Of a DNA stretch of 64,000 nucleotides, positions 3,040 through 41,075 are shown piece by piece. The first letter of the stretch is position 1. Each line of letters starts with the position of its first letter. This stretch comes from an uncultured Candidatus Cloacimonadota bacterium (lineage in GTDB: Bacteria; Cloacimonadota; Cloacimonadia; Cloacimonadales; CAYQPF01). The stretch spans positions 45,424-109,423 of the forward strand of contig CAYQPF010000001.1 of the NCBI GenBank assembly GCA_964419225.1, written 5' to 3'. The notes beneath the pieces were generated by a model. That model searched no databases. It saw only the letters and a program-made list of their open reading frames with translations, and had not been told where the DNA came from. The position numbers were made by a program, and so were the translations under genes.

Positions 3040-5172
3040 ATGATTTTATGCCTATTCCTGACCAATATTTTTGCTCAAAGCGATCAGGGAGTTAATTATA
3101 CTAACGGAGACTATGTTACATGTTCTGCTATTGAGGGAGATTTCCTTTGGGTTGGCACTACTGGCGGATTAGTAAAAATTAATCGAATTACAGGTGAAAC
3201 TGTCTTCTATAATAAAGCAAATTCTCATTTGCCAAGTAATCAAATATTAGATATTTCTGTGGATTCTCAAGGAATCAAATGGATTGTTAATAGTGATCAG
3301 AGTATTGCCAAATTTGATGGTACAAACTGTACTGTATATAAAACTTCCAATTCTGCTCTGCCTGATTGTGGTTTTGAGTGTATTTCTATTGATTCTCAAA
3401 ATACCATATGGATTGGTACTTATGGTGGACTTGTCAAATTTGATGGAGTAAACTGGACTATCTTCAATACTTCCAATTCAGATTTGCCTGGTAATAGAGT
3501 TTGTTGTATCACTTTTGACTCTCAGAATAACAAATGGATAGGCACTTATGGTGGTCTTGCCAAATTTGATGGGACAAACTGGACAGTATATAATACTTCT
3601 AACTCAGGGCTGCCTTATGATTATGTTAATTGTATCACTATTGATTCTCAGAATAACAAGTGGATTGGTACGGCAGATGGTGGTCTTGCCAAATTTGATG
3701 GGACAAACTGGGTTGTATATGACATGTTCAATTCAGGCTTACCTATTGATTGGGTTGAATGTATCTCAATTGACGCTCAGAATAACAAATGGATTGGTAC
3801 TATGAATGGTGGTCTTGCCAGATTTGATGGGACAAACTGGACTGTATATAATACTTCTAATTCAGACTTACCTTATGATTTGATTAAATGTATCTCTATT
3901 GATTCTCAGAATAATAAATGGATTGGTACTTGTGATGTTGGTGGTCTTACTAAATTTGACGATGTAGTTTGGATTGCTTACAATACTTCCAATTCAGACT
4001 TACCATCTAATGATGTTAATTGTATTACAATTGATTCTCAGAATAACAAGTGGATTGGTACTTTCGGTGGACTTGTTAAATTTGATGGGGCAAATTGGAC
4101 AGTATATAATACTTCTAATTCAGATTTGCCTGATAATTGGATAATGTGTATCTCCATTGATTCTCAAAATAACAAATGGATTGGTACTGAGGCTGGAGGT
4201 CTTGCCAAATTTGATGACACAAACTGGACGGTTTACAATACATCTAATTCAGAATTGCCCAGTAATCAAGTTGGATGTATTTCTATTGATTCTCAGGATA
4301 ACAAATGGATTGGTACTGTCTCTGATGGTGGACTTGTTAAATTTGATGGTATGAACTGGATTGTGTATGATACTGAAAATTCAGGGTTGCCCAGGAATTT
4401 TGTTCACTATGTTTCAATAGACTCTCAGAACAATAAATGGATTGGCACTGCTGGTGGTGGTCTTGCTAAATTTGATGATTCTAACTGGACAGTTTACGAT
4501 ACTTCTAGTTCAGAGTTGCCTAGTAATCATGTCAATTGGATTTGTATTGACTCTCAAAACAACAAATGGATTGGTACTCCGCAGGGTCTTGCCCAATTTG
4601 ATGGTACAAATTGGACAGTTTACAATATTTCCAATTCTATTCTGCCCGATTATCATGTAGGCTGCCTTTCTATTGATTCTCAGGATAACATATGGATTGG
4701 CACTAATCGATGTCTTGCCAAGTTTGACGGAACATATTGGACAGTTTTCAATGAAACAAACTCCATTTTGCCTTCAATTTACATTAAAAGTATTGCCATC
4801 GACTCGCAGGATAATAAATGGATTGGTTCCGTAGGAGGCTTAACCGAACTCTTCTGGAATGCAACTCCGACTCAGGATGAAATCCAGAAACCCCTGTCCT
4901 CCCTTAATCTCTCAAACTATCCTAATCCCTTCAATCCGCAAACCACGATTTCCTACACTCTTCCCCAACCCGGTAATGTAGAGTTGGAAATCTTCAATAT
5001 CAAAGGCCAGTCAGTCAAACAACTTGTGCAGGAAAACCAGTCTTCAGGCAAGCACACTGTCCTCTGGCAGGGAAACGATACTTCCGGCAAAAAAGTCACT
5101 TCCGGGATCTATTTCTGCAGAATAACCACAGCCAATAAACAGGAAATCCGCAAAATGCTGCTTCTAAAGTAG
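3040..5172 (+). CDS. Secreted beta-propeller repeat protein (two-component-regulator-propeller / Reg_prop-like repeats) with T9SS C-terminal sorting domain
   Basis: About 14 tandem ~47-aa repeats (IDSQNNKWIGTxGGLAKFDGTNWTVYNTSNSDLPSN). Short signal peptide. C-terminus NYPNPFNPQTTISYTL...GIYFCRITT...KMLLLK. Confidence 0.75.
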   Translation: MILCLFLTNIFAQSDQGVNYTNGDYVTCSAIEGDFLWVGTTGGLVKINRITGETVFYNKANSHLPSNQILDISVDSQGIKWIVNSDQSIAKFDGTNCTVYKTSNSALPDCGFECISIDSQNTIWIGTYGGLVKFDGVNWTIFNTSNSDLPGNRVCCITFDSQNNKWIGTYGGLAKFDGTNWTVYNTSNSGLPYDYVNCITIDSQNNKWIGTADGGLAKFDGTNWVVYDMFNSGLPIDWVECISIDAQNNKWIGTMNGGLARFDGTNWTVYNTSNSDLPYDLIKCISIDSQNNKWIGTCDVGGLTKFDDVVWIAYNTSNSDLPSNDVNCITIDSQNNKWIGTFGGLVKFDGANWTVYNTSNSDLPDNWIMCISIDSQNNKWIGTEAGGLAKFDDTNWTVYNTSNSELPSNQVGCISIDSQDNKWIGTVSDGGLVKFDGMNWIVYDTENSGLPRNFVHYVSIDSQNNKWIGTAGGGLAKFDDSNWTVYDTSSSELPSNHVNWICIDSQNNKWIGTPQGLAQFDGTNWTVYNISNSILPDYHVGCLSIDSQDNIWIGTNRCLAKFDGTYWTVFNETNSILPSIYIKSIAIDSQDNKWIGSVGGLTELFWNATPTQDEIQKPLSSLNLSNYPNPFNPQTTISYTLPQPGNVELEIFNIKGQSVKQLVQENQSSGKHTVLWQGNDTSGKKVTSGIYFCRITTANKQEIRKMLLLK
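3100..4850 (+). repeat. Intragenic tandem ~141-bp repeats (Reg_prop units)
   Basis: A recurrent string, gattctcagaataacaa(a/g)tggattggtac...cttgccaaatttgatgggacaaactggac, with long identical stretches between units. Confidence 0.85.
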
Positions 5173-5257
5173 GATTAGCATCCAGCATATGGTTCAGATA
5201 TCATATTCCAGATGTTGATACTCTCAGACCTGTAGTCATATAATACGAGTTTAAAAT
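5173..5257 (+). repeat. Conserved ~85-nt element directly 3' of a T9SS-cargo gene stop (copy 1)
   Basis: After the TAG: gattagcatccagcatatggttcagatatcatattccagatgttgatactctcagacctgtagtcatataatacgagtttaaaat. A partial extra head, aggactagcgtccagc, follows at 5258-5273. Confidence 0.85.
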
Positions 5258-5633
5258 AGGACTAGCGTCCAGCAATATTAGCATGGAGCAAATTGTAGGG
5301 GTATCATAAAACCACTAATTCCGATCCTCTTTTTGTGCTTATTTAGGAACTGAGACAAAATAAAGTATTCAATATGGCTTAGTTATATACGTGAAATATG
5401 ATTGAATTTTTGTAAGAAATAATGTGGTATCAAGCAATAAACGAAAATTCAGGTAAATCATTAGAAGAATAATCTTTCGTCCTATCGGACGAGGATTGGT
5501 GGTCATTCAAACTGGCAGTTGAAACTGTCCAGCTAACATCTTTTGTCCTACGGACAGTAAGAGAAGCCTATGCTTGATACATATTCCATTGCAAATATTA
5601 TTTTGTCACGAACCCAAAAAATGGGTGGTTGCT

Positions 5634-5677
5634 GTAAGCTAAAGCATACAGAATTACCGGCTAAAGCCAGCGTTCCA
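5634..5677 (+). repeat. 44-nt dispersed repeat core
   Basis: gtaagctaaagcatacagaattaccggctaaagccagcgttcca. It contains an internal direct duplication of GCTAAAGC. Confidence 0.85.
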
Positions 5678-5750
5678 AGGCAATAGCCGGGTAATAATAG
5701 ACTGAGCCCATACTCACTAAGGTTTTAGCCCAAGATGTTAATGATAATAT

Positions 5751-5834
5751 TTTAAGTTCTTATCATAAGACTGCAGGTCTTAGATTATCAACACCCGAAG
5801 TAAAAAACCTGAACCATAAGCTGGACGCTAGTCC
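5751..5834 (-). repeat. Conserved ~85-nt element directly 3' of a T9SS-cargo gene stop (copy 2)
   Basis: Sense reading after the TGA: ggactagcgtccagcttatggttcaggttttttacttcgggtgttgataatctaagacctgcagtcttatgataagaacttaaa. Confidence 0.85.
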
Positions 5835-7874
5835 TCATTTAATTAAAAGCATTTTTTTGATCTCGGATTTAGTGCCGGTATTGATCTTATAGAAATAAAT
5901 TCCACTTGTAACTTTATCCGCACCATTATTATCACCATTCCAGACAATGGAATAATCACCTGCAGATTGAGTTTCATTGACCAGTGTTTTCACTAACTGC
6001 CCTTTAGCGTTGTAAACACTCATGTTGACCATACCTGTTTGAGGGACAGTATAAGCAATTGTTGTTGTGGGGTTGAAGGGGTTAGGATAGTTTTGTTTGA
6101 GAATTTTTGGAGAGTTTAGGGTGATCTCTGATTTGCCGAGAAGCAGGTCATTTTCGATCATCTCAGTCACATTGAAATCCAGGGCCATATACATCAGGTA
6201 ACCCCCGAGATTCTCATCAGGATATTGCTGAAAAGAATTATAGTCAAGTGCATTATAGAACATGAAATGTACTCTAACCTGTGTGTCTCCATTTTCATCA
6301 ATGTACTTTTCGAGTGGATCGCAGGGATAAACATACTCAGGGATCATACCTCCGAAGATTTCTGGATTGTCGATACTGTTGAAGTAAAAAGCTTTACTCC
6401 AGTGGGAGCCATTATCTGCAGAGATTTCCACAACAATTTCAGGCACATCAGCCCACTGTTCAAAATCTGTGTTATTCAGTTCATTAAACAGTCTGGCTTT
6501 GTCGCTGTTTTGCCAGACAGCTGCCATATAATTATCATTTGGTGTTTTAGTGATCTTGAAATTATTCTCATTATAGGTATCATTATAATCCCACCAGAAG
6601 AAAGGAAAATCATTATCAAATTCCCAGGGTTCATCAGGACCTACGACTTCACGCCAGGGGATATAAATCTGGCCGTCATCTTCCTGTTCCAAGCAGTCTT
6701 CGCCCCATCCCTTGGGTTCGATATCCAGAACTTTGAATTGCTGGGTTACAAAATCATATTGCACATCTTTTACAAATTGAAAATTCCAGTAATATCCTGA
6801 AGGAACCTGTAATCCCCAGCAGTTGATCATATGCAATCTGCCGGCATTATCCATTTCCACATTCATGTGATGGGTATTAATCGGGCTGAAGAATAATGAG
6901 TCTGCATTGGGAAAAGTACTATCGGGATTAGGAACATATCTCTCGGAATTAGTTATGGTCATAGAGAAGTCCCCGTCTCCGTAGTTATTGTTGTACAGAA
7001 CAAACAGATCCGGCTCGAGTGTCTGTGTTGAATCCATGTTTAAATAGCCCATGAACCCGATCATGGAGTCTTTGACAAAGAAGGAATACTGTGGTCTTTT
7101 AAATGTTGTACCATTATGCCAGGCATCCATTTGGGGAATTGTTCTGACAGTCCAAGTGAAAGGTGTTGTTCCGTTCAACATTTCTGTAGATATATCTGTA
7201 TATGCAATTTTAGGGTTTTCAGAAGGAAATCCTGCACCTCCTGTTGTTGTATTTTGGGCATAAACATATATTCTACGGTAATCAGTACCCATAGGAGAAG
7301 CACCGAAAAATACATTTGGCCAAATGTATTCATCTCCGTTAGGATCAGGTGGAAAGATTACTTGAGGAACTGACCACAGAAAATTGGACTGTTGATAGGC
7401 TAAAAAGCATTCGAGATCACCAGAATTTGTGTTCTCTGCATGCCAACCTACAAAGGGATTATTCGTGACAGGATCAATATCAAAGGTGGGAAATCCTTGT
7501 CTAAGATCATCGGTTGTTATGCGTCCACTATTCTGATTTACTCCGTTACTGATATAATTGTAATAAGCTTTTCTGGAAGAATTTTGATTTGTCTCCTGAG
7601 CGTGATAAACGGCATAAATGCCGTCACCTAAGTTTTGTATTTTCAGGGGAATATTATTATACCCGCCCATGAAATACTCACTATAAGAAAACATCAGTTG
7701 GATGGGGGGATAGGCTAGTGTTACCTCGGCAGGTAACGGTCTTTCGTGATTGATTGGAATTGCTTTCAGATTGGGACTGGCAATGGCTCTCTTGGGTGAA
7801 TAGTTACTCTGCATTTCTGCCAGCAATAACACTCCCACAAAAACCAGCATAACAGTGACAAACAGTTTTTTCAT
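5835..7874 (-). CDS. Secreted protein of unknown function with T9SS C-terminal sorting domain
   Basis: Signal peptide MKKLFVTVMLVFVGVLLLA. C-terminus NYPNPFNPTTTIAYTV...GIYFYKINT...KMLLIK. GGAGG lies upstream of the ATG. No catalytic motif recognised. Confidence 0.7.
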   Translation of the reverse strand: MKKLFVTVMLVFVGVLLLAEMQSNYSPKRAIASPNLKAIPINHERPLPAEVTLAYPPIQLMFSYSEYFMGGYNNIPLKIQNLGDGIYAVYHAQETNQNSSRKAYYNYISNGVNQNSGRITTDDLRQGFPTFDIDPVTNNPFVGWHAENTNSGDLECFLAYQQSNFLWSVPQVIFPPDPNGDEYIWPNVFFGASPMGTDYRRIYVYAQNTTTGGAGFPSENPKIAYTDISTEMLNGTTPFTWTVRTIPQMDAWHNGTTFKRPQYSFFVKDSMIGFMGYLNMDSTQTLEPDLFVLYNNNYGDGDFSMTITNSERYVPNPDSTFPNADSLFFSPINTHHMNVEMDNAGRLHMINCWGLQVPSGYYWNFQFVKDVQYDFVTQQFKVLDIEPKGWGEDCLEQEDDGQIYIPWREVVGPDEPWEFDNDFPFFWWDYNDTYNENNFKITKTPNDNYMAAVWQNSDKARLFNELNNTDFEQWADVPEIVVEISADNGSHWSKAFYFNSIDNPEIFGGMIPEYVYPCDPLEKYIDENGDTQVRVHFMFYNALDYNSFQQYPDENLGGYLMYMALDFNVTEMIENDLLLGKSEITLNSPKILKQNYPNPFNPTTTIAYTVPQTGMVNMSVYNAKGQLVKTLVNETQSAGDYSIVWNGDNNGADKVTSGIYFYKINTGTKSEIKKMLLIK

Positions 7875-9315: not shown

Positions 9316-11031
9316 CTATCGCTCAATTGCGAATTTAACACTAAGAGATAAATCGTCTGACTTGAATACACAGGTGTAAATTCCTGTGGATAAGTATGTG
9401 GATGAGTTTGTGATGTTGGTCAGGTATAGTTTATTCTCTCCCGGAGTGGTATTTAGGATATATTTCTCCAGTACTTTTTTACCGGAAATGTTATAAATAA
9501 TTATTTTACAGTTATGCTGAATATTTTCAAAATATGTAGTTAAAATCAAATCATTTTTAACCGGATTAGGAAAGATGTAACATTCGTTTCGGGGGGGATT
9601 TAGCGAAAATTGACTTGAATCTGCAGCACTTTTGTTCCCTGTTTCATCCTCACAGAAAATCGTGAATGAGCCATTTTTCAAGACAGGGATTGAGATATTA
9701 TCGGAATAAGTAGAATATATAGTACTTCGTTTGTTATCTTCTTTGAGAACAATATTGGTTTTTAAATTATCAACATCCAGAGGGTAAATCCATTTGAGAT
9801 AGAGAGTACTGAGATTAACTTTGGAAGTTTTGAGATCAACATTTGCAGGAGCTGTAGTATCATCAGAGTTGGCAAAGTTAGCCATTCTGAGCATTCTGGT
9901 GGATGAGAAGGAAAGATTGGAGTATTTTTCCATGTTCAGGGTGATCAGTTCATTGAGGAGGGGGTAGTAGAAAGTGGCAGTACCGCAAATACCGAGTTGA
10001 TTATTATATTTTTGGGCGATGAAACAGGAATCAATACCAGCCAGAATAGCATTACAATCCGACTTTAACTGCAGATCAGATGCTGCATCTTCTAAATGTA
10101 AGAAGAAGTTCTTCAGGTCAGCGTCAACCTGTTGATCATTAAAGCAAAGTGTTTTGCTTCGTGCCAGTGCAAAAGGGGTACGGTCTGTTTGATATGCCCA
10201 TTGATTGGTGAAAGCGGTCAACTTGCTGCAGAGATCTTTGTATTTTTCAGTCTCAACTGCAGAGCAGGTGAGGGGATAATTGGTTTCACCCAGAGGGTTT
10301 TGGCTACCACCGAGCAGATATGAATTCAAATAGAGGGTGGGGATGACCTGAGCCAGGTGATCCGGGTTGGAATTGGAATTCCATTCTTGCAGGAGATCAT
10401 TGTAGGGAAAGCCATCGGTGGGAACTTCTTCTTCGGAGGAAATGAAGTAATCTGTGAAATTGGCAGCTTCGCCGATGATTTCCATTGAACCCATATTACA
10501 GGCATCCATGATCAGCAAGGACAAATGTGGTAAATAGGCTAGGGCAGACCGAAAATCCCCATTCGTGAATTCAATGAGATTTTCTGATGTGTTGTCCGGG
10601 CAGACATATTTGGAATCTGATTTCATCCAACCTGTACCATGAGACCAGATTACCAGAGCATAGTTATCAGCGGGATAAAGGGAAGTACCCCAGTCAATAA
10701 AGCTACGCAGGGAATGGTAGTCACCACTGTCGATCTGACCAAGATTACGGATAATGGGAGATGTTATTTCGGGAGAATTATCTTTTTGAATACGGTAACG
10801 TTTAGCACCGGTGGGGGAGAGTTCCTGAGGTAAATCCAGTTGTACCAGCAGATTTCCTTTGGTGAATCCGACTTCTTCCATTTCATTAATATCACTGATT
10901 GCATTAAGAGCCAGACCGTTATCTGCAGCCATATAGACAAGAATAGTCCATTCTACCGCAAAAAGGGGAGTGGAAATAAGGAGCATCACGGCAAACAAAA
11001 AAGCAATTTGTTTCAACTTCCAACCTCCCAT
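9316..11031 (-). CDS. Clostripain-like cysteine peptidase (family C11) with T9SS-type C-terminal domain
   Basis: Signal peptide. VYMAADNGL, His motif VIWSHGTGW, Cys motif LIMDACNMG. C-terminal beta-sandwich tail IFPNPVKNDL...GIYTCVF. Confidence 0.75.
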   Translation of the reverse strand: MGGWKLKQIAFLFAVMLLISTPLFAVEWTILVYMAADNGLALNAISDINEMEEVGFTKGNLLVQLDLPQELSPTGAKRYRIQKDNSPEITSPIIRNLGQIDSGDYHSLRSFIDWGTSLYPADNYALVIWSHGTGWMKSDSKYVCPDNTSENLIEFTNGDFRSALAYLPHLSLLIMDACNMGSMEIIGEAANFTDYFISSEEEVPTDGFPYNDLLQEWNSNSNPDHLAQVIPTLYLNSYLLGGSQNPLGETNYPLTCSAVETEKYKDLCSKLTAFTNQWAYQTDRTPFALARSKTLCFNDQQVDADLKNFFLHLEDAASDLQLKSDCNAILAGIDSCFIAQKYNNQLGICGTATFYYPLLNELITLNMEKYSNLSFSSTRMLRMANFANSDDTTAPANVDLKTSKVNLSTLYLKWIYPLDVDNLKTNIVLKEDNKRSTIYSTYSDNISIPVLKNGSFTIFCEDETGNKSAADSSQFSLNPPRNECYIFPNPVKNDLILTTYFENIQHNCKIIIYNISGKKVLEKYILNTTPGENKLYLTNITNSSTYLSTGIYTCVFKSDDLSLSVKFAIER

Positions 11032-11077: not shown

Positions 11078-11198
11078 CAGTGGGCAGTATGCAGTATAGG
11101 CAGGGGGCAGTGGAGATGAGAAGTTGATAGTTGAGAGTTGAAAGTTGAGAGTTGGGGGAGTCGTGAGTGGTAAATGGTAAGTTGTGAGTGGTAATTTG
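11078..11198 (+). repeat. GTTGAGA + GTGAGTG-type heptamer arrays (G-rich, nearly C-free on the plus strand)
   Basis: cagggggcagtggagatgagaagttgatagttgagagttgaaagttgagagttgggggagtcgtgagtggtaaatggtaagttgtgagtggtaatttg. Confidence 0.9.
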
Positions 11199-15767: not shown

Positions 15768-17780
15768 ATGCAAAATTTTAGTAAGCAAGTAAGCGATATC
15801 TGGGCAGTAGCTAATTTATTAAGGGGACCTTATCATCCCAATCAATACAAAGATATAATGTTACCGATGACAGTATTACGAAGGTTGGATTGTGTGTTAG
15901 AGCCGACGAAAGAAGATGTTTTAAAGACAGTGGAAAAGTATCGGGATACTGAGTTAAAGAATGTGGAACCAATTCTGAACAAAATTACAAAAGTACCATT
16001 TCATAATACCAGTCGGTTTACATTTGAGAGGTTGAAAGAAGACCCTGACAATCTGGCACAAAATCTGGTTCAATATATAAAGTCATTTTCATCCCGAGCA
16101 CAAAAAGTATTGGAATATTTCAATTTTGAGAAGCATATAGCCAAACTTGAGGAGAATAATATTCTGTTTCTCTTGATTTCGAAATACTGCGAAATGGACT
16201 TACATCCTGAGACAGTATCAAACCTGGGGATGGGATATATTTTTGAAGAATTGATCCGCAAGTTTTATGATGCCAGTAACGAAGAGGCTGGAGATCACTT
16301 TACTCCCCGTGAAGTAATTAGGCTGATGGTTGATATCATATTTTTGCCGGATAATAATGTACTTAGCACCAAGGGAATTATCAAAACCTTATTTGATCCT
16401 GCCTGCGGGACAGGTGGAATGCTTTCGGTGGCAGAAGATTATTTGCAGGAGTTAAATCCAGATGCACATTTGGAAGTATATGGTCAGGATTATAATGAGC
16501 AGTCTTACGCAATTTGCGGGTCTGACATGATGATAAAAGACCAGAATCTGGATAATATCCGCTATGGGAACAGCTTTACAAATGATCAGTTTGCAGGTAT
16601 GCATTTTGATTATATGCTGGCAAATCCACCGTTTGGAGTGGAATGGAAGAAAGAAAAAGACATAATTGAAAAAGAGCATGAAAAACAAGGGTTTGGCGGT
16701 CGTTTCGGTGCAGGATTACCCAGGATAAATGATGGACAGTTATTGTTCATTATGCACATGATGCACAAAATGAAAGAGACAAAGGAAGGTGGGACAAGGT
16801 TGTCGATAGTGTTTAACGGTTCTCCGCTGTTTACGGGTGGAGCAGGATCAGGAGAGAGTGAAATCCGACGCTGGATAATCGAAAATGATATGTTGGAAGC
16901 GATTATTGCTTTGCCTGATCAACTGTTTTACAATACCGGTATATCTACGTATTTATGGATAGTGACAAACAGAAAAGACCCAAAACGCAAAGGAAAAGTA
17001 CAATTGGTCAATGCGGTGGGATTCTATAAGAAAATGCGAAAGAGTCTGGGGAATAAGCGGAATGAGATTAGTGAAGATCAGAGAGCAGAAATAGTACGGT
17101 TGTATGGTGAGTTTAGCGAGAGTGAGTTTGTCCGCATATATAAGAACACAGATTTTGCGTATAAGAGGATTACGGTGGAGAGACCGTTGAAGCTTAATTT
17201 TGTAGTGGATGCTGAACATATCCGGAAAGTAAGAGATTGCAGTGCGTTTTCAGGATTGGCAGAAAGCAAAAAGCGTAAGGACAAGGAAGTTGTTTTACAG
17301 GAAATAGAAGAAGGACGGAAACTTCAAGATAAGATAATAGAAGCACTGGAGAAATTAAGCAGTTTGGGAGTGGTACAGAATCGGGATAAGTTTACCCATG
17401 AGTTGAAGGCAGTTTTGAAGAAAGTCGGGTTAGTATTGCCGGCACCTTTGCTGAAAGGAATTTTGAGTGCAATAGCAGAAAGAGATGAAACGGCTGATGT
17501 ATGCAAGGATGCCAAAGGCAAACCTGAAGCTGATCCTGAGTTACGTGATTATGAGAATGTGCCTTATGAAGATGAGATTGATGCATATATGAAGCGGGAA
17601 GTTTTGCCACATGTGCCTGATGCCTGGGTGGATCATGAAAAGACCAAGGTCGGGTATGAGGTCAATTTCAACAGATATTTCTATAAATATGTTCCACCTC
17701 GCCCTTTGAAGGAAATAGATGCAGAACTCAAAGCTATAGAAGCTGAGATAGCAGAGATGCTGGTTGGGGACTCGGAATGA
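15768..17780 (+). CDS. hsdM: Type I restriction-modification system, DNA methyltransferase subunit M
   Basis: HsdM N-terminal domain (IWAVANLLRG). SAM motif FDPACGTGGML. Catalytic LANPPFGVEW. Confidence 0.95.
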   Translation: MQNFSKQVSDIWAVANLLRGPYHPNQYKDIMLPMTVLRRLDCVLEPTKEDVLKTVEKYRDTELKNVEPILNKITKVPFHNTSRFTFERLKEDPDNLAQNLVQYIKSFSSRAQKVLEYFNFEKHIAKLEENNILFLLISKYCEMDLHPETVSNLGMGYIFEELIRKFYDASNEEAGDHFTPREVIRLMVDIIFLPDNNVLSTKGIIKTLFDPACGTGGMLSVAEDYLQELNPDAHLEVYGQDYNEQSYAICGSDMMIKDQNLDNIRYGNSFTNDQFAGMHFDYMLANPPFGVEWKKEKDIIEKEHEKQGFGGRFGAGLPRINDGQLLFIMHMMHKMKETKEGGTRLSIVFNGSPLFTGGAGSGESEIRRWIIENDMLEAIIALPDQLFYNTGISTYLWIVTNRKDPKRKGKVQLVNAVGFYKKMRKSLGNKRNEISEDQRAEIVRLYGEFSESEFVRIYKNTDFAYKRITVERPLKLNFVVDAEHIRKVRDCSAFSGLAESKKRKDKEVVLQEIEEGRKLQDKIIEALEKLSSLGVVQNRDKFTHELKAVLKKVGLVLPAPLLKGILSAIAERDETADVCKDAKGKPEADPELRDYENVPYEDEIDAYMKREVLPHVPDAWVDHEKTKVGYEVNFNRYFYKYVPPRPLKEIDAELKAIEAEIAEMLVGDSE

Positions 17781-19093
17781 ACTTAAAACCATATCCAAAA
17801 TATAAACCAAGCGGGATTGAATGGCTGGGTGAGATACCGGAAGATTGGGAAATGACCAGATTGAGATTTATAACGAAAGTTAATCCAACAAAAGGAGAAT
17901 TGAATGGATTAAACAAAGATGATTTGGTTAGCTTTTTGCCTATGGAAGAAATAAGCAGTGATGGAACTCACAGTGCAAAACTGGAAAAAAGATTGGGTGA
18001 AGTTGAATCTTCTTATACCTATTTTAGAGAAAATGATGTACTCTTTGCTAAAATAACGCCTTGTTTCGAGAATAATAAAGGAGCAATTGCCAAGAATCTG
18101 ACCAATGGAATAGGTTTTGGAACCACGGAGCTTCATGTTTTACGATCATTATCAAAATGTTTTAATGAATTCCTCTATTATATAACCATAAGCGATCCGT
18201 TTAGAAAATGGGGTTATTCGTATATGTATGGGGCTGGTGGACAGAAAAGAGTACCTGAAGAATTCATTAAAGACTATTACCTACCTTTTCCAACAATAGG
18301 AATTCAACGTAAAATATCAGCCTTTTTAGATAGTGAAACCTCTCTCATAGATACACTTATTGCCAAGAAGCAAAGACAGATTGAATTATTAAAAGAAAAG
18401 CGAATTGCTTTGATAACAAATGCAGTGACAAAAGGACTTGATCCCAATGTGAAAATGAAACCAAGCGGGATTGAATGGTTGGGAGAGATACCGGAAGAAT
18501 GGAAAGCATCTGTGGTAAAAAGAGGATATTCAGTACAATTAGGTAAAATGCTGCAGAACAATAAGACCAATGATTCGGATGTTTTAGTTAATTACTTACG
18601 AGCAGTTCACATACAAAATGAAGGTATTAATACAAACGATCTGCCAGAAATGTGGGCATCAAAAGAGGAACTAACACAGTATGGGGTTAGAATTGGTGAC
18701 TTACTAATTTGCGAAGGTGGGGAAGCAGGCAGAAGTGCATTTTTATATGAACTTGAAAATGACTGTATTATTCAGAATGCACTGCATCGGGTTCGCTCAA
18801 AGACTAACGAATTAAGGTATCTACACTATTTCTTACAAATAGTAAAAAATAGTGGTTGGATGGAAGTCTTATGTAATAAAGCTACGATAATGCATTTTAC
18901 CAGAGAAAAATTAGTAGATCTTGAAATAGTGCTTCCAAACAGAAAGGTACAAAAAGATATAACAGATTACCTCGATAAGGAAACTACTAAAATTGATAAA
19001 ATGATGGGTAAAATTAATCATTCAATTTCATTGTTACAAGAATTTAGATCATCCTTGATAACAGATGTGGTTGCAGGGAAAATACAATGTTAA
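17777..19093 (+). CDS. hsdS: Type I restriction-modification system, specificity subunit S (two target-recognition domains)
   Basis: ATGA overlap with hsdM. Duplicated architecture, each half opening with KPSGIEWLGEIPE(D/E)W. Conserved helical spacers (LIAKKQRQIELLKEKR; LLQEFRSSLITDVV). Confidence 0.92.
   Translation: MNLKPYPKYKPSGIEWLGEIPEDWEMTRLRFITKVNPTKGELNGLNKDDLVSFLPMEEISSDGTHSAKLEKRLGEVESSYTYFRENDVLFAKITPCFENNKGAIAKNLTNGIGFGTTELHVLRSLSKCFNEFLYYITISDPFRKWGYSYMYGAGGQKRVPEEFIKDYYLPFPTIGIQRKISAFLDSETSLIDTLIAKKQRQIELLKEKRIALITNAVTKGLDPNVKMKPSGIEWLGEIPEEWKASVVKRGYSVQLGKMLQNNKTNDSDVLVNYLRAVHIQNEGINTNDLPEMWASKEELTQYGVRIGDLLICEGGEAGRSAFLYELENDCIIQNALHRVRSKTNELRYLHYFLQIVKNSGWMEVLCNKATIMHFTREKLVDLEIVLPNRKVQKDITDYLDKETTKIDKMMGKINHSISLLQEFRSSLITDVVAGKIQC
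17804..17851 (+). repeat. hsdS internal direct repeat, copy 1 (48 bp)
   Basis: aaaccaagcgggattgaatggctgggtgagataccggaagattgggaa. It is near-identical to 18458-18505. Confidence 0.85.
18458..18505 (+). repeat. hsdS internal direct repeat, copy 2 (48 bp)
   Basis: aaaccaagcgggattgaatggttgggagagataccggaagaatggaaa. Confidence 0.85.
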
Positions 19094-20241
19094 TAGGGGA
19101 AGTTATGAAATGTTTACACAGTGGGAAATGTTTTTGTGGAGAATATTGTGCTAATAATCTAAGGAATAGACAAAGGAGTTTTGGAGGCTATTGTTATAGG
19201 CTAAAATATCGATCTTGGTATAGACATTTTTCATACTTTATACCTATTGCAAAATTAAGTGTAAAAGGAGAAAAATACAATCAAAAATACGATTATCTGA
19301 ATTCAAAATCATGTACTTGCATTTCAATTTATGATTTTATCAGAGCCACTCTTACATTGGGATCTTTAGATAGTTCCTCTTGTTATAAACGGAGTTTTCG
19401 ATTACATTCATTCAGATTAGGAGCGTGTTTATCAGCAATTTCATTACTAGAGTTTGATGGTAATCTTAAACTAAATAAGGATTATAATGAGTTAGACCTT
19501 TCTGAGAAAATATTTGTAAACTATTGGTATGGCATGATTTTTACTAAAATTGTAGCTGAACAAATATTTCTAGTACCTTGGTTAGGATTTGTAGATAATT
19601 GCCCTGTTAAAATTGAAAAAGATGATGAAGAAACAAAGTCAAGACCTGACTACGTTGGATTAGATATAAATAGTGGATGGCATGTTTTCGAAGCCAAAGG
19701 AACAAAAAATAAAACAAAAGACATGGAAAATAGAGCAATAACACAAGCTAAAATGATTAAAAAGATAGCTAATAAAAAACCTAAAACCAGTAATGCTTGC
19801 ATTGCTGAATTATCTGCATCAGGAGTGAAAATATATCTTTATGATCCTGTTCCAGACGATGATGAACATAATGGGAATAATGGTGACAATGTTGAAGGAG
19901 ATCACAAAGCTTTTCTAAAGGCATATTATCAGTCATTAATTTCATTTATTATAGAAAATGATAATGAACAAACTTCTTTTAAAGTTGGCGAATATTCTTT
20001 TATTGGACGTAAGTCAATATTACTTGGTAACGAGATAACAATAGCCTTACCTCAAGAAATAATTAAATATCCAGAAGCAGCAGACCGTTTTTGTAAGCAA
20101 TTGTTTGAAACAGATGAAGTCTCTTATGATTTGCCAACACAATATAGCAGTATTGGACTTGATGGGGTATTAGTGTTTTCTAAAAAGCCATTTGAGATAG
20201 TTCCCGAAGAAGTAAGCAAATTGTCAACAATCTTAAAGTGA
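19087..20241 (+). CDS. Hypothetical protein with PD-(D/E)xK-like nuclease signature, embedded in the Type I R-M operon
   Basis: The ATG overlaps the hsdS stop (ATGTTAA). Motif SRPDYVGLDINSGWHVFEAKGTKNK fits PD...ExK. The N-terminus is Cys-rich (CLHSGKCFCGEYC). No family recognised. Confidence 0.6.
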   Translation: MLIGEVMKCLHSGKCFCGEYCANNLRNRQRSFGGYCYRLKYRSWYRHFSYFIPIAKLSVKGEKYNQKYDYLNSKSCTCISIYDFIRATLTLGSLDSSSCYKRSFRLHSFRLGACLSAISLLEFDGNLKLNKDYNELDLSEKIFVNYWYGMIFTKIVAEQIFLVPWLGFVDNCPVKIEKDDEETKSRPDYVGLDINSGWHVFEAKGTKNKTKDMENRAITQAKMIKKIANKKPKTSNACIAELSASGVKIYLYDPVPDDDEHNGNNGDNVEGDHKAFLKAYYQSLISFIIENDNEQTSFKVGEYSFIGRKSILLGNEITIALPQEIIKYPEAADRFCKQLFETDEVSYDLPTQYSSIGLDGVLVFSKKPFEIVPEEVSKLSTILK

Positions 20242-20347
20242 CAAATTCAACAAACCTGTTGACAACAAATCTAAGAATTAGTTGTTTTATTTAAGAGAAA
20301 TAGTTTGAGATAGTTAGAGAGAAAAGCAAAAAAGGGATGAGCAAAGA

Positions 20348-21496
20348 ATGAGTACATTACCGTTGAACAGGGAGATACTTTTTTGGGGAATGGAGCGATC
20401 CGGGCTGAATGAAGAAGCATTGGAGGAGAAGTTTCCCAAGATAAGGAAATGGATAAGCGGAGCGACAGAGCCGACTTTCAAGCAATTGGAAGATTTGGCG
20501 AAGGCTGTGTTTATACCATTCGGCTATTTTTTTCTGTCTAAACCTCCGGCTGAGAAGTTACCCATTCCATTTTATCGTACTGTTAAAAGTGGTGAGAATA
20601 ATCAGATCAGTCCCAATCTTTTAGAGACAATTTATGCCATGCAGAGACGGCAAATCTGGCTACAGGAATACAAAATAGAGAATGAATATGAACCGTTGGA
20701 GTATGTAGCTTCTGCAGGGGAAAAAGAAAGTCCGGTGAAAGTAGCGGAAGAGATAAGAAAGGTGCTTGGACTGGAAGAGAACTGGACTTGCTCTTTACCC
20801 AATAAGGATGAAGCACTAAGACATTTCAGATATGTAATTGAAAATGCCGGAATAACAGTCATGGCAAATGGAATTGTGGAAAACAATACGCACAGAAGAT
20901 TGAGTGTGAAAGAGTTTCGGGGTTTTGTGTTGGTGGATAAATATGCACCCCTGATCTTTGTGAATAATTCCGACAGCAAGGCAGCCCAAATGTTTACGCT
21001 GGCACATGAACTGGCACATGTTTGGTTTGGGAGTAGCGGGGTATTTGATTTAAGGCAATTACAGCCTTCTGAGGATGTGAAAGAGATTGTGTGTAATCAG
21101 GTCGCAGCAGAATTGTTGATATCGACGAGATTGGTCAGGCATACCTGGGAAAAGACAGAGAATAAGAATGAGATTTACCGAGATATGGCAAAGAAGTTCA
21201 AGGTAAGCGAGATTGTGGTAGCGAGAAGATTGCAGGATTGTGGATTTATTACAAAGGAAGAGTTTTTGACATTTTATGATGAATACATAGAGAAACTGAA
21301 GAATATTACAAAAGTAAAACAAGGTGGAGGTGATTTTCTAAATAATCAGAATCTCCGCGTTAATAAGCAATTTATGAGTCTTGTTCTTCAGGCATTGGGT
21401 GAAGGGAAGATACAATACACAGAAGCATATCGGCTGACAGGTTTACACAGAAAATCTTTCGAGGATTTTGCGTTTAGAGTAACAGGGAAGCCCTGA
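20348..21496 (+). CDS. ImmA/IrrE-family zinc metallopeptidase (COG2856/DUF955) with N-terminal HTH-like domain
   Basis: N-terminus LNEEALEEKFPKIRKWISGATEPTFKQLEDLAKAVFIPFGYFFL. HExxH motif FTLAHELAHVWFG. Confidence 0.85.
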   Translation: MSTLPLNREILFWGMERSGLNEEALEEKFPKIRKWISGATEPTFKQLEDLAKAVFIPFGYFFLSKPPAEKLPIPFYRTVKSGENNQISPNLLETIYAMQRRQIWLQEYKIENEYEPLEYVASAGEKESPVKVAEEIRKVLGLEENWTCSLPNKDEALRHFRYVIENAGITVMANGIVENNTHRRLSVKEFRGFVLVDKYAPLIFVNNSDSKAAQMFTLAHELAHVWFGSSGVFDLRQLQPSEDVKEIVCNQVAAELLISTRLVRHTWEKTENKNEIYRDMAKKFKVSEIVVARRLQDCGFITKEEFLTFYDEYIEKLKNITKVKQGGGDFLNNQNLRVNKQFMSLVLQALGEGKIQYTEAYRLTGLHRKSFEDFAFRVTGKP

Positions 21497-21987
21497 TGAC
21501 AGATGAACCAGTCTTTGTTTTAGATGCGAATGTATTTATCGGAGCAAAGAATGGTTATTATGCATTTGATATAGTGCCGGCATTTTGGGAAAAACTGATT
21601 GAGTATGCCTCAGAAGGAAGAATTGCCAGTACAATTCAGGTATGGGAAGAGCTTACAATTGGAAGTGATGAGCTGGTAGAATGGGTTAAACACAACTTTA
21701 AGAATTATTTTTTACACACTGATAATATGTTCGTTATCGAAGCATATACGAAAATTATAAATTGGGTACAGAGTGAAAATTATTTAGATGCAGTAAAAGA
21801 GGATTTTGCCAAAATAGCAGATGGGTGGATAATCGCTTATGCAATGGCACATAATGGAATAGTGGTAACGCATGAAATGCCAAGTCTGAGCAAAAAGAAG
21901 ATACCGATGCCCAATATTTGTGAGGTATTTGGGGTGAAGTATGTGAATACATTTGAGATGATGCGAATGCTGGGAGTGAAGCTGTAA
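21496..21987 (+). CDS. DUF4411 family PIN-like protein (putative nuclease/toxin partner of ImmA/IrrE)
   Basis: The start overlaps the upstream stop (TGATG). N-terminus VFVLDANVFIGAKNGYYAFDIVPAFWEKL is typical of DUF4411. Confidence 0.8.
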   Translation: MTDEPVFVLDANVFIGAKNGYYAFDIVPAFWEKLIEYASEGRIASTIQVWEELTIGSDELVEWVKHNFKNYFLHTDNMFVIEAYTKIINWVQSENYLDAVKEDFAKIADGWIIAYAMAHNGIVVTHEMPSLSKKKIPMPNICEVFGVKYVNTFEMMRMLGVKL

Positions 21988-22007
21988 GTAAGGTTAGGTG
22001 TCAGGGC

Positions 22008-22142
22008 CCAATGTCATTAACTTAAGCTGGATAGACTGGCTTTGGCTCAACTTTCCACATGGAACGCTGGCTTTAGCCGGTAATTCTGTATGCTTTAGCT
22101 TACGGAAAAAACTATCATTTTCCCTTAAGTCAATGACATTGG
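22008..22142. mobile_element. MITE-like 135-bp insert with 19-bp terminal inverted repeats, sitting inside a CAGGTGT heptamer array
   Basis: Left arm ccaatgtcattaacttaag (22008-22026); right arm cttaagtcaatgacattgg (22124-22142), 18/19 complementary. It contains the 44-nt dispersed core also seen at 5634-5677. Confidence 0.4.
22060..22103 (-). repeat. 44-nt dispersed repeat core (inverted copy)
   Basis: The reverse complement equals gtaagctaaagcatacagaattaccggctaaagccagcgttcca, identical to 5634-5677. Confidence 0.85.
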
Positions 22143-22187
22143 TCAGGTGCCAGGTGTCGGGTGTCAGTGGAAGGAAGGAAAAGAGAG
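22141..22187 (+). repeat. CAGGTGT-type heptamer array
   Basis: ggtcaggtgccaggtgtcgggtgtcagtggaaggaaggaaaagagag. Confidence 0.8.
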
Positions 22188-22303
22188 TGCTTAACCACCA
22201 CGTCAGGATTAGATTCCAGCATTATTTTGTTGCCACCACTCCGCCGGAAAGGAATTAAGATGTGGGCAGATAATATTTTAGATGCTTAAAAGATAGAGGA
22301 CAA

Positions 22304-25261
22304 ATGAATTACAATGAGAAATGTTATGAAGAGGTTTTGGAAGAAACACTATTAGAGTCGGGATATATTAAGTCAGAGATTACAGAATATCACAAGGCAA
22401 GGGCATTATTTCCTGAGCAGATAATATCGTTTATACAGTCAACTCAACCAAAAGAGTGGGAATATTTGTATAATTTGCATAAAGAAAATACCGGAGCTGT
22501 GATTATTGAGGATTTAGGCAAGGCACTTAATTCTGAGTATGAGGGATGTCTATATGTGTTAAGGCATGGATTCAAGTGTTATGGAAAGACACTTAAGACT
22601 GCATATTTTGCTCCGGTTAGTAATCTGAATCCGGAAATACAAAGACTCTATGATGCTAACAGGCTGAGTATTACTCGTCAACTCATGTATTCGGAAAAAA
22701 ATAATAACAGTCTGGACATGGTTATCAGTCTGAATGGGATACCGATTATAACATTAGAGTTGAAGAATCCTTTAACAGGGCAGACCTGGCGGAATGCTAT
22801 TCATCAGTATAAGCATGACAGAGATCCGGGAGAGTTACTGTTCCAATTCAAGAAGAGAACACTTGCCCATTTTGCAGCAGATCCTGATGAAATATATATG
22901 ACAACGAGATTATCAGGAAAAGAAACACGCTTCTTACCATTTAACAAGGGATTGAATCAAGGAGCAGGTAATCCGCCTAACCCCAAGGGATACAAAACAG
23001 CATATCTTGCTGAAGAAATTTTACAAAAGGATAGTTTATTAGAAATAATTGCCCGGTTCTTACATTTACAAGTGGAAGAAAAAATGTTGGGTACACGTAA
23101 AATACGCAGAGAAAGTTTGATTTTTCCCAGATATCATCAGTTAGATTGTGTAAGAAGGATAATTACTGATGCCGGAAGTGAAGGAAGCGGGAAGAGTTAC
23201 TTAATACAACATTCGGCAGGAAGCGGGAAAAGCAATACAATTGCCTGGCTGGCACACAGACTGGCGAGTCTGCATAATGAGCAGGATAAGAGAGTTTTTG
23301 ATTCTGTTGTGGTAGTAACAGACAGACTGGTACTTGATCAACAGTTACAGGACACAATTTATCAGTTTGAGCACAAATATGGAGTTGTTTGTAAGATAAA
23401 TGAAGACTCGACACAGTTGGCAGAATGTTTGAAAAACGGGACTCCGATAATAATAACAACTTTACAGAAATTTCCTTATGTCACAGAAAAAGTGGGAGCT
23501 TTACCCCAAAGAAAATATGCAGTAATAATAGATGAGGCACACAGTTCACAGAGCGGAGAAAGAGCGACTGAGTTGAAAGGAGTATTAGGAGAAAATACGA
23601 ATAGAGAGGTTGAGGATTATGAAGACGTCATCAATCAGAATATGCAGAAGAGGGGACATCAGCCGAATATAAGTTTTTTTGCATTTACGGCAACACCTAA
23701 GTATAAGACACTGGAAGTTTTTGGAACAGCCCAAAAAGGAGAAACACCCGCAAGTTTTCACATTTACAGCATGAGACAGGCAATAGAAGAGGGCTTTATT
23801 CATGATGTATTAAAATACTACACAACTTACAAGACATATTTTGGCTTAATAAAATCAATTGAAGATGATCCGGAAGTAGATAAGCATAAAGCAGCCCGGG
23901 AATTGGCACGCTTCATGAGTATGCATCCTTATAATATATCACAAAAGACGGAAGTGATGATAGAGCATTTCCGCAGGCATACAAGGCATAAAATCGGCGG
24001 GAAAGCGAAGGCAATGGTGGTGACATCATCACGATTACATGCAGTCAGATACAAGCAATCCTTTGATGAATATCTACTGAGAAAAGGATATACAGATATA
24101 AGGACATTAGTTGCTTTTTCAGGAGAAGTAATTGATCCAGATGCTCCAGATTGTACCTATACAGAGCAGGGGATGAATCAGGGAGTCAGAGAAAAGGAAT
24201 TGCCGGAACGCTTTGGGTCGGATGAATATCAAATTCTGATAGTAGCTGAGAAATATCAAACCGGATTTGATCAGCCCTTGTTACACACAATGTATGTGGA
24301 TAAGCGGTTGGATGGAATACAAGCCGTACAAACATTATCCAGATTGAATCGCATACATTCAGGAAAAGAAGATACATTTGTTTTAGATTTTTATAATGAG
24401 AGTGATGGCATTGCAGAGGCATTCCAGCCATACTTTGAAACGACAAAGGTTGGCGAGAGAGTAGATGTTCACCAACTTTATGAAATAAAAATAAAGCTGG
24501 AAGCAGCACATGTTTTCTTTACAGAAGAAGTAGAAGAATTTGCACGGACATATTATAAACCTGTTAAGTATCACAACCCACAGGATCATGTTAAGTTAAA
24601 CCGTTGTCTTGATCCGGCAGTGGAAAGGTATTTGGGGTTGAGCGTGGAAGAACAGGATGAGTTTAAACGAAGTTTGACAGCATTTAGAAATCTTTACTCA
24701 TTCATTTCGCAGATAATACCATTTCAGGATTCTGATTTGGAGAAATTATATACTTATGTTCGCTTTCTAATAGCTAAACTACCTAAAGGTGCAAAAGGGA
24801 TTGTATATCATTTCGATGATGAAGTCGCTTTGAAATACTATAGATTGCAAAAGATAATGGAGGGATCTATAACACTTGAAACGGGAATTGGAGGAGAGGT
24901 TTCGGGGCCTTTGGAAGTAGGAACAGGTAAAGTCAAGGGCGAGTTAGTTGAATTATCAGAATTGATTAATATTTTGAATGAGAGATTTGGTACTAATTTT
25001 ACGACAGCAGATCAATTGTTTTTTGATTCTTTGAAGGAAGATGCTTTGGCTAATGACAAACTGCGTCAGGCAGCAGTTGTGAACACACTGGAGAATTTTG
25101 GAATAGTATTTCAAAAGCAATTGGAAGATATATTAATTAACCGGTTAGATCAGAATCAGACGATAGCACAGAAATTCTTTAATGAAGATGATTTTAAAAG
25201 AATAATAAGTCATACCTTGATGAAACAGGTGTATAAAGCAATCAATGAGGAGAAAGTCTGA
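22304..25261 (+). CDS. hsdR: Type I restriction enzyme, R subunit (nuclease + SF2 helicase/translocase)
   Basis: N-terminal PD-(D/E)xK (LDMVISLNGIPIITLELKN). Walker A QHSAGSGKSNT. DEAH box VIIDEAHSSQSG. Helicase C region QTGFDQP...QAVQTLSRLNR. Confidence 0.95.
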   Translation: MNYNEKCYEEVLEETLLESGYIKSEITEYHKARALFPEQIISFIQSTQPKEWEYLYNLHKENTGAVIIEDLGKALNSEYEGCLYVLRHGFKCYGKTLKTAYFAPVSNLNPEIQRLYDANRLSITRQLMYSEKNNNSLDMVISLNGIPIITLELKNPLTGQTWRNAIHQYKHDRDPGELLFQFKKRTLAHFAADPDEIYMTTRLSGKETRFLPFNKGLNQGAGNPPNPKGYKTAYLAEEILQKDSLLEIIARFLHLQVEEKMLGTRKIRRESLIFPRYHQLDCVRRIITDAGSEGSGKSYLIQHSAGSGKSNTIAWLAHRLASLHNEQDKRVFDSVVVVTDRLVLDQQLQDTIYQFEHKYGVVCKINEDSTQLAECLKNGTPIIITTLQKFPYVTEKVGALPQRKYAVIIDEAHSSQSGERATELKGVLGENTNREVEDYEDVINQNMQKRGHQPNISFFAFTATPKYKTLEVFGTAQKGETPASFHIYSMRQAIEEGFIHDVLKYYTTYKTYFGLIKSIEDDPEVDKHKAARELARFMSMHPYNISQKTEVMIEHFRRHTRHKIGGKAKAMVVTSSRLHAVRYKQSFDEYLLRKGYTDIRTLVAFSGEVIDPDAPDCTYTEQGMNQGVREKELPERFGSDEYQILIVAEKYQTGFDQPLLHTMYVDKRLDGIQAVQTLSRLNRIHSGKEDTFVLDFYNESDGIAEAFQPYFETTKVGERVDVHQLYEIKIKLEAAHVFFTEEVEEFARTYYKPVKYHNPQDHVKLNRCLDPAVERYLGLSVEEQDEFKRSLTAFRNLYSFISQIIPFQDSDLEKLYTYVRFLIAKLPKGAKGIVYHFDDEVALKYYRLQKIMEGSITLETGIGGEVSGPLEVGTGKVKGELVELSELINILNERFGTNFTTADQLFFDSLKEDALANDKLRQAAVVNTLENFGIVFQKQLEDILINRLDQNQTIAQKFFNEDDFKRIISHTLMKQVYKAINEEKV

Positions 25262-25270
25262 ACCAGCAAA

Positions 25271-25308
25271 GAGATGTTGATAGTTGATAGTTGAGAGTTG
25301 GGGGGAGG
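25271..25308 (+). repeat. GTTGATA-type heptamer array between hsdR and the orphan ORF
   Basis: gagatgttgatagttgatagttgagagttggggggagg. Its 3' end supplies the SD of the next ORF. Confidence 0.85.
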
Positions 25309-25312
25309 TGCC

Positions 25313-26460: not shown

Positions 26461-26700
26461 GGGAAATTGATAGTTGATTTGTGAGAAAAAGCTTTTTGGG
26501 AATGGACTATATGGACTAAATGGACTGTATGGACAAAAGGGACTTTGGAAATAGGTGCGGTGGGCCAGTAGAAAAGGACTGAGCATTAAGGATTGAGAAA
26601 AAGGACGCTTAATAGAACGCAGACTTACACGGACTGACACAGACTAACACGGACAAGAGAGGATATCTGAAGCTATAGTATGGTGGAATTGAAAAAGAGA
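26461..26700 (+). repeat. Mosaic of short periodic repeat blocks (GTTGATA, ATGGACT x4, GGACGCTTAATAGAACGC, ACACGGACTG x3); GGA/GGAC-rich
   Basis: ggaatggactatatggactaaatggactgtatggacaaaagggactttggaa...aaggactgagcattaaggattgagaaaaaggacgcttaatagaacgcagacttacacggactgacacagactaacacggacaagagaggat. About 13 GGA triplets in roughly 165 nt. Confidence 0.85.
26603..26654 (+). repeat. GGACGYTTAATAGAACGC-family repeat
   Basis: ggacgcttaatagaacgcagacttacacggactgacacagactaacacggac. Confidence 0.75.
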
Positions 26701-31054: not shown

Positions 31055-31063
31055 AATAAGGAC

Positions 31064-31114
31064 GGACGCTTAATAGAACGCGGATTGACGCAGAAACCGA
31101 GGTTAATCGCAGAT
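31064..31114 (+). repeat. GGACGYTTAATAGAACGC-family intergenic repeat
   Basis: ggacgcttaatagaacgcggattgacgcagaaaccgaggttaatcgcagat. Confidence 0.8.
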
Positions 31115-31166
31115 TTGAAAATTATTGTTTCGAAGCAAAAGAAGTATATTTTTTTCTAATAATAAC

Positions 31167-40386: not shown

Positions 40387-40438
40387 GGACGTTTAATAGA
40401 ACGCGGATCTTCACGGAATTCGCAGAAAAAACGCAGAT
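40387..40438 (+). repeat. GGACGYTTAATAGAACGC-family repeat, copy flanking the GxxExxY gene (left)
   Basis: ggacgtttaatagaacgcggatcttcacggaattcgcagaaaaaacgcagat. 51/52 identical to 40896-40947. Confidence 0.9.
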
Positions 40439-40495
40439 AAATGTTTTTTATGATGTTTGTTAAGATAGTAAAATGTAAAAGAAGATGGAGGAAAT

Positions 40496-40947: not shown

Positions 40948-41075
40948 GGATAGTTTTATTATACTTTTCCATGTTTTGATGCTTAATAATTTCTTGAAAT
41001 TAGGCAATTAGGAACTGATTGGCTGTTAAAATTTATGAAACTGTTCTTTATGTCGCATTTATTTAATACAGATAA

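Follow-up and report, generated by a model that had tools for sequence, protein, structure and literature searches.

The 64,000-nt stretch of DNA analyzed here (the window), from an uncultured Candidatus Cloacimonadota bacterium, contains three genes for T9SS cargo proteins that are each followed, flush with the stop codon, by a similar sequence of about 85 nt. This arrangement raises the question of what the shared sequence is: a residue of gene duplication, a small mobile repeat, a recombination site or promoter at the DNA level, or a signal in the 3'UTR of the cargo transcripts.

An element fused to the stop codons of T9SS cargo genes

We designate the three copies A, B, and C (Table 1) and divide the element into two parts: a head, which in its RNA form reads (U)AGGACUAGCGUCCAGC(W)UAU... 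over 16 to 26 nt and is fused to the stop codon, and a body of ~60 nt, which follows the head at four loci, including one outside the window (L002, see below). Aligned in mRNA sense from the stop codon, A, B, and C show a mean column identity of 79%. With up to three mismatches allowed, the 26-nt head pattern finds three matches in the window compared to 0.00 expected (100 shuffles), and the mid block GTGTTGATAATCTCAGACCTGTAGTC occurs exactly three times. Among the four full copies, the most diverged variable block is that of copy B.

A sequence-only reading of the window had described these three copies as lying flush with the stops of T9SS cargo genes, and the sequences read as described. 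It had also placed the start of the element at the first base after the stop codon. The register with the stop codon holds, but the conserved head actually begins inside it, so that the element starts at 5171 (A), 5835 (B), and 43030 (C). Across the junction of stop and head, A and C read AAR-TAG-GAC, and B, with one extra G, reads AAA-TGA-GGAC.

All five gene-adjacent heads known from the window and from two further loci (L002 and L004, see below) run in mRNA sense, and each overlaps its stop codon. The host stop is TAG in four of these five head-bearing genes compared to 24% of the other window genes (p = 0.013), which suggests that the conserved head includes the stop codon.

The genes carrying the head encode T9SS cargo with a canonical ...KKMLLxK tail. 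Pfam assigns Por_Secre_tail / FlgD_ig C-terminal domains to the proteins of genes A, B, and C, and a Por_Secre_tail domain is present in all five proteins encoded upstream of gene-adjacent heads. A tie to a subset of T9SS cargo, as had been proposed, is borne out by these five heads at cargo stops from three genomic sources. Two other T9SS-tailed genes of the window, 9316-11031 and 37995-40382, end in more divergent tails (...FAIER and ...VVIGK) and, as the earlier reading had noted, lack the element; no T9SS tail was found among the other scanned window ORFs of at least 149 aa.

Two heads are located away from stop codons. An exact one adjoins copy A and agrees in 16/16 positions with the head, in line with the extra head fragment reported before. 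The other, at 22205, is degenerate: it has no cargo gene before it, 0.08 such matches are expected per window, and it could be a chance match. Cargo genes A and B are convergent, and in the region between them the second head behind A and the head of copy B match perfectly as a 16-nt inverted repeat; the segment enclosed by these two heads is invertible in principle.

Table 1. Coordinates of the element and of neighboring features. Positions refer to the window unless a contig is named; strands are given in parentheses, and bit scores are from covariance model R1.
Feature	Position (strand)	Sequence or detail	Context	Bits
Copy A	5170-5257 (+)	stop TAG 5170-5172; head AGGATTAGCATCCAGC 5171-5186, variant with compensatory GGAT/ATCC pair; body to 5257	Reg_prop/T9SS cargo gene 3040-5172 (+)	113.9
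Second head, no body	5257-5273 (+)	TAGGACTAGCGTCCAGC; match at 5258-5273	adjoins copy A	
Copy B	5751-5837 (-)	stop TGA 5835-5837; head AGGACTAGCGTCCAGC 5820-5835; body to 5751	679-aa T9SS cargo gene 5835-7874 (-)	104.9
Copy C	42941-43031 (-)	stop TAG 43029-43031; head 43015-43030; body to ~42941	1902-aa T9SS cargo gene 43029-48737 (-)	111.9
Possible degenerate head	22205-22220 (+)	AGGATTAGATTCCAGC; 13/16, 3 mismatches	intergenic, upstream of hsdR	
Inverted pair of heads	5258-5273 (+) / 5820-5835 (-)	546 nt apart	between genes A and B	
Mini-ORFs	5187-5216; 5790-5819 (-); 42985-43014 (-); L002 4098-4127 (-)	9 codons	full copies	
Intrinsic terminator	42880-42907 (-)	12-bp stem and U-tract	~35 nt 3' of copy C	
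Terminator-like hairpin	5656-5671 (-)	GCTGGCTTTAGCCGGT	~80 nt 3' of copy B	
Terminator-like hairpin	L002 4036-4012		3' of L002 copy	
Terminator-like hairpin	L004 4404-4425		3' of L004 head	
Weak terminator-like hairpin	5297-5337 (+)	GGGGTATC...GATCCTC, then TTTTTGTG; read by eye	3' of copy A and second head	
Identical 20-nt terminator hairpin	42884-42903 (-); L004 4405-4424 (+)	GGGCACAAGAAATTGTGCCC	3' of head-bearing cargo genes	
49-nt repeat	5629-5677 (-); 22060-22108 (+)	96% identical	after gene B; after DUF4411 gene 21496-21987	
GGACGYTTAATAGAACGYGGAT... family	26603-26664; 31061-31120; 40387-40448; 40896-40957; 41085-41122 (-); 42806-42870	~60 nt	intergenic	
(GGTGTCA)n tracts	42763-42800; 21990-22010; 22140-22170	G/T-rich, heptamer-like		
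(GTTAATG)n tracts	50009-50051; 52439-52467; 11163-11191	G/T-rich, heptamer-like		
(TTGAKAG)n tracts	2888-2946; 11101-11159; 25268-25315	G/T-rich, heptamer-like		
Type I restriction-modification locus	15768-25261	hsdM 15768-17780; hsdS 17777-19093; hsdR 22304-25261		
Direct repeat in hsdS	17804-17851; 18458-18505	48 nt, 92% identical		

Conservation of the element exceeds that of the adjoining coding sequences

If the element were merely the end of recently duplicated genes, which the earlier reading had named as a finding that would speak against it, the coding sequences next to it should be at least as similar. Over the last 240 coding nt, the genes of A, B, C, L002, and L004 are 48-69% identical between loci. 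Their codon third positions are 26-51% identical overall and 26-42% among A, B, C, and L002, compared to 14-16/16 for the 16-nt head and 75-80% for the whole element. Such saturated third positions beside the element exclude a recent duplication of the gene 3' ends. The earlier inference, drawn from the tailed genes without it, that the element is distinct from the CTD coding repeat is supported as well. The proposal that the element is the scar of a cassette spreading CTD-encoding 3' ends is disfavored, because the CTD coding DNA beside it is not co-conserved.

Conservation within the element is uneven: three of 26 columns vary in the head compared to 28 of 59 in the remainder (Fisher p = 0.0014), and two of the three variable head columns pair with each other. 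The closest coding pair is that of B and L004 (69% identical nucleotides, third positions 51%), both of which have a perfect head. No alignment was obtained between their bodies (z = -0.2), and any homology of the L004 tail to the body is marginal (p ~0.015-0.035, with one control reaching 0.045). Since the bodies are 75-80% alike at the diverged loci A, B, C, and L002 but not between B and L004, the body seems to have spread or been homogenized after the genes had diverged. This pattern would fit a head that is older than the body or under stronger constraint. The order head-body-head after gene A and the inverted heads between A and B would be compatible with recombination at the head.

Transcription context and predicted RNA structure

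Terminator-like hairpins follow the element at a distance of 25-110 nt in C, B, L002, and L004. The hairpin behind A is weak, was read by eye, and was not called by the scanner because its loop exceeds 8 nt. Because it lies after the stop codon but ahead of a terminator-like hairpin, the element should be transcribed as the proximal part of the 3'UTR. The 20-nt hairpin GGGCACAAGAAATTGTGCCC occurs in identical form in two different genomes, both times downstream of a head-bearing cargo gene, while the sequences between head and terminator differ. The hairpin behind copy B, GCTGGCTTTAGCCGGT, is contained in the 49-nt repeat, which lies in sense after both genes listed in Table 1; the Logan contig L005 ends within this repeat.

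The head contains the mini-hairpin GGAC-TAGC-GTCC that had been noticed before. It comprises 4 bp (-5.2 kcal/mol) and is the only invariant palindrome of the element. The only paired change in the head, found in copy A, is compensatory and converts GGAC/GTCC to GGAT/ATCC (C-G to U-A). On the sense strand, RNAalifold predicts this hairpin and a second, 12-bp helix between alignment columns 26-38 and 51-65. In the second helix, five cells (four changes) remain paired via G-U in sense and are broken in antisense; overall, 93.8% of the cells paired in the consensus are retained in sense compared to 83.3% in antisense. The pairing retained by G-U points to a sense RNA, a difference that is not significant with four sequences. 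The covariation score was attained by 121 of 500 shuffles (n = 4 sequences), and folding the copies one by one gave weak structures (z ~-1 to -2.5) that vary from copy to copy. With no more than four full copies available, the evidence for structure and covariation is weak. Inspection by eye revealed no IHF site, no dif-like site, and no end hairpins of the IS200/IS605 type.

Distribution of the element outside the window

In a collection with a single genome for each GTDB species, to which the source genome does not belong, a scan with the pattern TAGCRTCCAGCWTATGGTTCAG, which is too strict for head-only copies, returned one real match and one chance match within a Thorarchaeota gene. The real match lies on CAZREC010000128.1 (L002), a 6.3-kb contig binned as 'Muribaculaceae', and is a full copy in sense that begins at the TAG stop of a T9SS cargo gene and is followed by a terminator. 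The cargo gene has a domain set like that of C, and its ORF runs past the contig end. Because a Cloacimonadota-type cargo gene with a full element sits in a 'Muribaculaceae' MAG, the contig is probably mis-binned. The second locus, L004, is a contig that encodes P0002, a 58%-identical homolog of gene B, and comes from the DNA assembly of run SRR13723396, in which the organism of the window is also represented. Here, TAG-GACTAGCGTCCAGCATAT is found at the gene stop, followed by a tail unlike the body and then by the terminator hairpin of copy C. In total, four full copies (A, B, C, and L002) and two head-only copies (L004 and 5258-5273) were available.

Applied to the window and the fetched loci, covariance model R1 detected no further copies; its sole extra hit was a partial match in L004 (31.7 bits). 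Among metagenome contigs, the pattern CCAGCWTATGGTTCAG-N(12-26)-GTTGATA, also too strict for head-only copies, gave a single chance match within a coding region. With the head as query, viral contigs yielded three chance matches, all in GC-rich coding DNA, and BLAST searches of plasmids and phages yielded none. Rfam 15 gave no gathering-level match anywhere in the window. In E-value mode, only sub-threshold chance matches were obtained for 5100-5900 and 42780-43100, the best of which fall outside the element, on the terminator hairpin. A literature search on T9SS 3'UTR motifs and Cloacimonadota repeats found nothing relevant. The element is real and non-random, and it is absent from Rfam and from the collections and literature covered by these searches.

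Homologs of the host genes can do without it. The element is absent after homologs of C at 50-56% identity (L012-L014), after a 33%-identical homolog of B (L015), and after two genes of other lineages with similar CTDs (L009, L011), so any function would have to be recent and dispensable. A search with a CTD profile returned only generic Cloacimonadota CTD fragments. The homologs of C and the matches of the CTD search bear Candidatus Cloacimonadota/Cloacimonetes names and, judged from the sequences covered by these searches, the element is restricted to one narrow clade of this phylum.

Other repeats in the window

A second intergenic repeat family, GGACGYTTAATAGAACGYGGAT..., is ~60 nt long (Table 1). 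The small PDDEXK_3 gene 40496-40870 is bracketed by two direct copies that are 92% identical, an arrangement reminiscent of an inserted cassette. The copy behind the FlgD-tailed gene 37995-40382 begins 5 nt past its stop, and others follow non-cargo genes (S1, ComM). Three types of G/T-rich, heptamer-like tracts were also observed. Several of them are flush with or overlap the stops of unrelated genes, so that patterned sequence after the stop codon appears to be a general habit of this genome. An unannotated 384-aa ORF and a gene pair (Peptidase_M78 / DUF4411) interrupt the type I restriction-modification locus, the hsdS gene of which contains an internal direct repeat. The Logan contigs around the element end at neighboring repeats, and an extension of the window via the gene at its left edge added only ~100 nt. 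Because such repeats break short-read assemblies, the element should be annotated.

A candidate 3'UTR module and its alternatives

To explain these observations, we propose, with a probability of roughly 40%, that the element is a lineage-specific 3'UTR module acting at the RNA level, the body of which has spread or been homogenized among the loci. The head would be a signal that some of the T9SS cargo mRNAs have in common. This signal may be a site where a protein or an RNase binds or processes the transcript or, alternatively, the conserved 5' seed of sibling 3'UTR-derived sRNAs that are released at the stop codon. Either way, the cargo transcripts would come under common post-transcriptional control. 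The body would be a younger, accessory part that spread among head-bearing loci via recombination at the head or gene conversion, and the order head-body-head after gene A would be a product of this process. In favor of this proposal are the fixed position and orientation of the heads, the Por_Secre_tail domains encoded upstream, the uneven conservation, the compensatory pair and the sense-strand G-U pairing, the placement ahead of terminator-like hairpins, the prevalence of TAG stops, the lack of terminal inverted repeats and, in the scanned window ORFs of at least 149 aa, of transposase or recombinase domains, the fit of the B and L004 pair with an old head and a younger body, and the precedent of GlnZ and CpxQ (see below). 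A search for targets of the head with RNAduplex, using the 5' regions in the window, was uninformative and identified no target. The two heads away from stop codons resemble the dynamics of a repeat and count against an RNA module. So do the small number of copies, the non-significant covariation, the weak folds, the short head hairpin, the homologs that lack the element, and the other repeat families of the genome.

A more far-reaching version of this proposal seems doubtful to us: the head-bearing genes would form a 3'UTR regulon specific for a cargo class, in which the stop-flush signal couples the expression of the secreted proteins to each other or to the load on envelope or secretion. 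We found no description of such a regulon for the T9SS. If the head is functional, it would be the first 3'UTR signal specific to T9SS cargo transcripts and would offer a way into the post-transcriptional control of an uncultured phylum. Its distinguishing traits are the exact register with the stop codon, the link to one CTD subfamily, and a conservation far above that of neighboring synonymous sites.

The main rival is a small, non-autonomous mobile or dispersed repeat of the MITE/REP type, neutral or selfish, for which the similarity of the copies would simply reflect recent spread. Its insertion would be in one orientation only, at the conserved 3' end of a CTD subfamily (...AAATAG) or at the head. 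We regard this as possible, if somewhat unlikely. It would explain why the element is multi-copy within a narrow clade only, why the bodies are more alike at paralogous loci than in the closest coding pair, B and L004, and how a head-body-head arrangement and perhaps a stray degenerate head at 22205 came about. Other 3'-flanking repeat families, some of them flush with stop codons, are abundant in the genome, and the body contains a conserved σ70-like -35/-10 pair, as do some MITEs. The hallmarks of transposition are missing, however. A search with a seed of 6 in the four copies and their flanks detected no terminal inverted repeats. There are no short target-site duplications; B, C, and L002 are without a flanking direct repeat, and the second, 17-nt head after A is too long and too specific for a typical duplication of this kind. 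Pfam identified no transposase, RAYT, or recombinase domain in the scanned window ORFs of at least 149 aa. The strict orientation and stop-codon register (5/5) also argue against such a repeat, as do the uneven conservation of head and body and the compensatory change, neither of which is expected of uniform neutral decay, and the L004 locus, where the head is perfect and the body not conserved. Should the element nevertheless be selfish, it would illustrate cleanly how a very small element that lacks inverted ends can target the conserved 3' end of a gene family and leave the genes intact.

Less probable by a good margin is that the head serves as a recombination site at the DNA level, in the manner of an att-like core or a cassette junction, for the exchange, insertion, or inversion of 3'UTR segments; the inverted heads would then permit inversion of the 546-nt spacer between genes A and B. 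Head-body-head is the expected product of integration at a core site, the 16-nt inverted repeat is perfect, and the sequences that follow an identical head in the full copies differ from those in L004 and from those after 5273. Yet the scanned window ORFs of at least 149 aa encode no integrase or invertase domain recognized by Pfam, and the head, by inspection, lacks the two-arm architecture of dif or attC. Moreover, an exchange at the head alters no protein, and a unit of 85 nt is too small to act as a circular intermediate.

Slightly weaker still is the idea that the body is an outward-facing promoter module, from which a short RNA would run to the terminator downstream or an antisense transcript into the convergent neighbor. 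At aligned positions in A, B, and C, we observed the promoter-like hexamers TTGATA and, after 18 nt, TATAAT/TATGAT/AATGAT, which score 11/12 (A), 10/12 (B), and 9/12 (C); the four copies all agree in bases 2 and 6 of the -10 hexamer. L002 scores only 8/12 and was not called, and AT-rich DNA yields many such matches (7 found compared to 3.1 expected). The four copies share no sequence downstream, and the transcripts from C and L002 would comprise ~45-75 nt, most of it terminator. A promoter in the body would also leave the most conserved part of the element, the head, unexplained.

Hardly tenable, finally, is a residue of recently duplicated 3' ends of cargo genes or a translated sequence, be it a read-through extension (the frame past the stops of A, C, and L002 is open for 21 codons) or a 9-codon ATG...TGA ORF (MVQ[IV]..C*) present in all four full copies: the third codon positions are saturated, the extension would require passing two in-frame TAG codons and is out of frame in B, and the mini-ORF lacks a usably spaced Shine-Dalgarno sequence. 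Variable sites are distributed over the codon positions as 7:4:7, and both coding readings were rejected for this lack of a codon-position signal.

Comparison with known systems

The REP/BIME sequences of Enterobacteria and Pseudomonas are short extragenic repeats in 3'UTRs, often located near stop codons or between convergent genes. They affect mRNA stability and, at a distance of up to ~15 nt from the stop, also translation of the upstream gene. REPs are GC-rich imperfect palindromes of 20-40 nt with long stems that occur in both orientations and are tied to RAYT transposases. The element is likewise short, extragenic, and placed in predicted 3'UTRs near stops, with copies A and B lying between convergent genes. 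Unlike REPs, it has a palindrome of only 4 bp and no stable stem-loop of 20-40 nt, its orientation is fixed, its hosts belong to one functional gene class, and no RAYT (Y1 HUH) domain was found in the scanned window ORFs of at least 149 aa.

The Correia elements of Neisseria carry terminal inverted repeats, generate TA target duplications, and insert in either orientation. With these and other MITEs, the element has in common a similar size (~85-150 nt for Correia elements), multiple copies, probable co-transcription with neighboring genes, and internal promoter-like hexamers, but terminal inverted repeats, target duplications, and two-way orientation are absent. As in integron attC sites, the conserved site starts just after the stop of the upstream ORF, and the interior is more variable. 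In contrast to attC, there is no imperfect R''/L''-L'/R' palindrome, no GTTRRRY core, no integrase in the scanned window ORFs of at least 149 aa, and no cassette array, and the hosts are convergent genes of 2-6 kb.

The element also has features in common with 3'UTR-derived sRNAs. CpxQ from cpxP and GlnZ from glnA are sRNAs processed at the stop codon of the parental gene (PMC9731577, PMC5222698), and both have conserved seeds just 3' of this stop codon, with RNase E sites flanking it (PMC9731577). Like these sRNAs, the element has its most conserved stretch immediately 3' of the stop and lies between the parental stop and a putative Rho-independent terminator (in C, B, L002, and L004; weak and read by eye in A). 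As for CpxQ, with cpxP as its parent, the parental genes encode envelope or secreted proteins. Differences are that the element has several paralogous hosts instead of one conserved locus, that its head partly folds into a hairpin, and that it occurs in another phylum with a very narrow distribution. Although it lacks the features that define REPs, MITEs, and attC sites, the element, as judged from these comparisons, most resembles 3'UTR repeats and 3'UTR-derived sRNAs.
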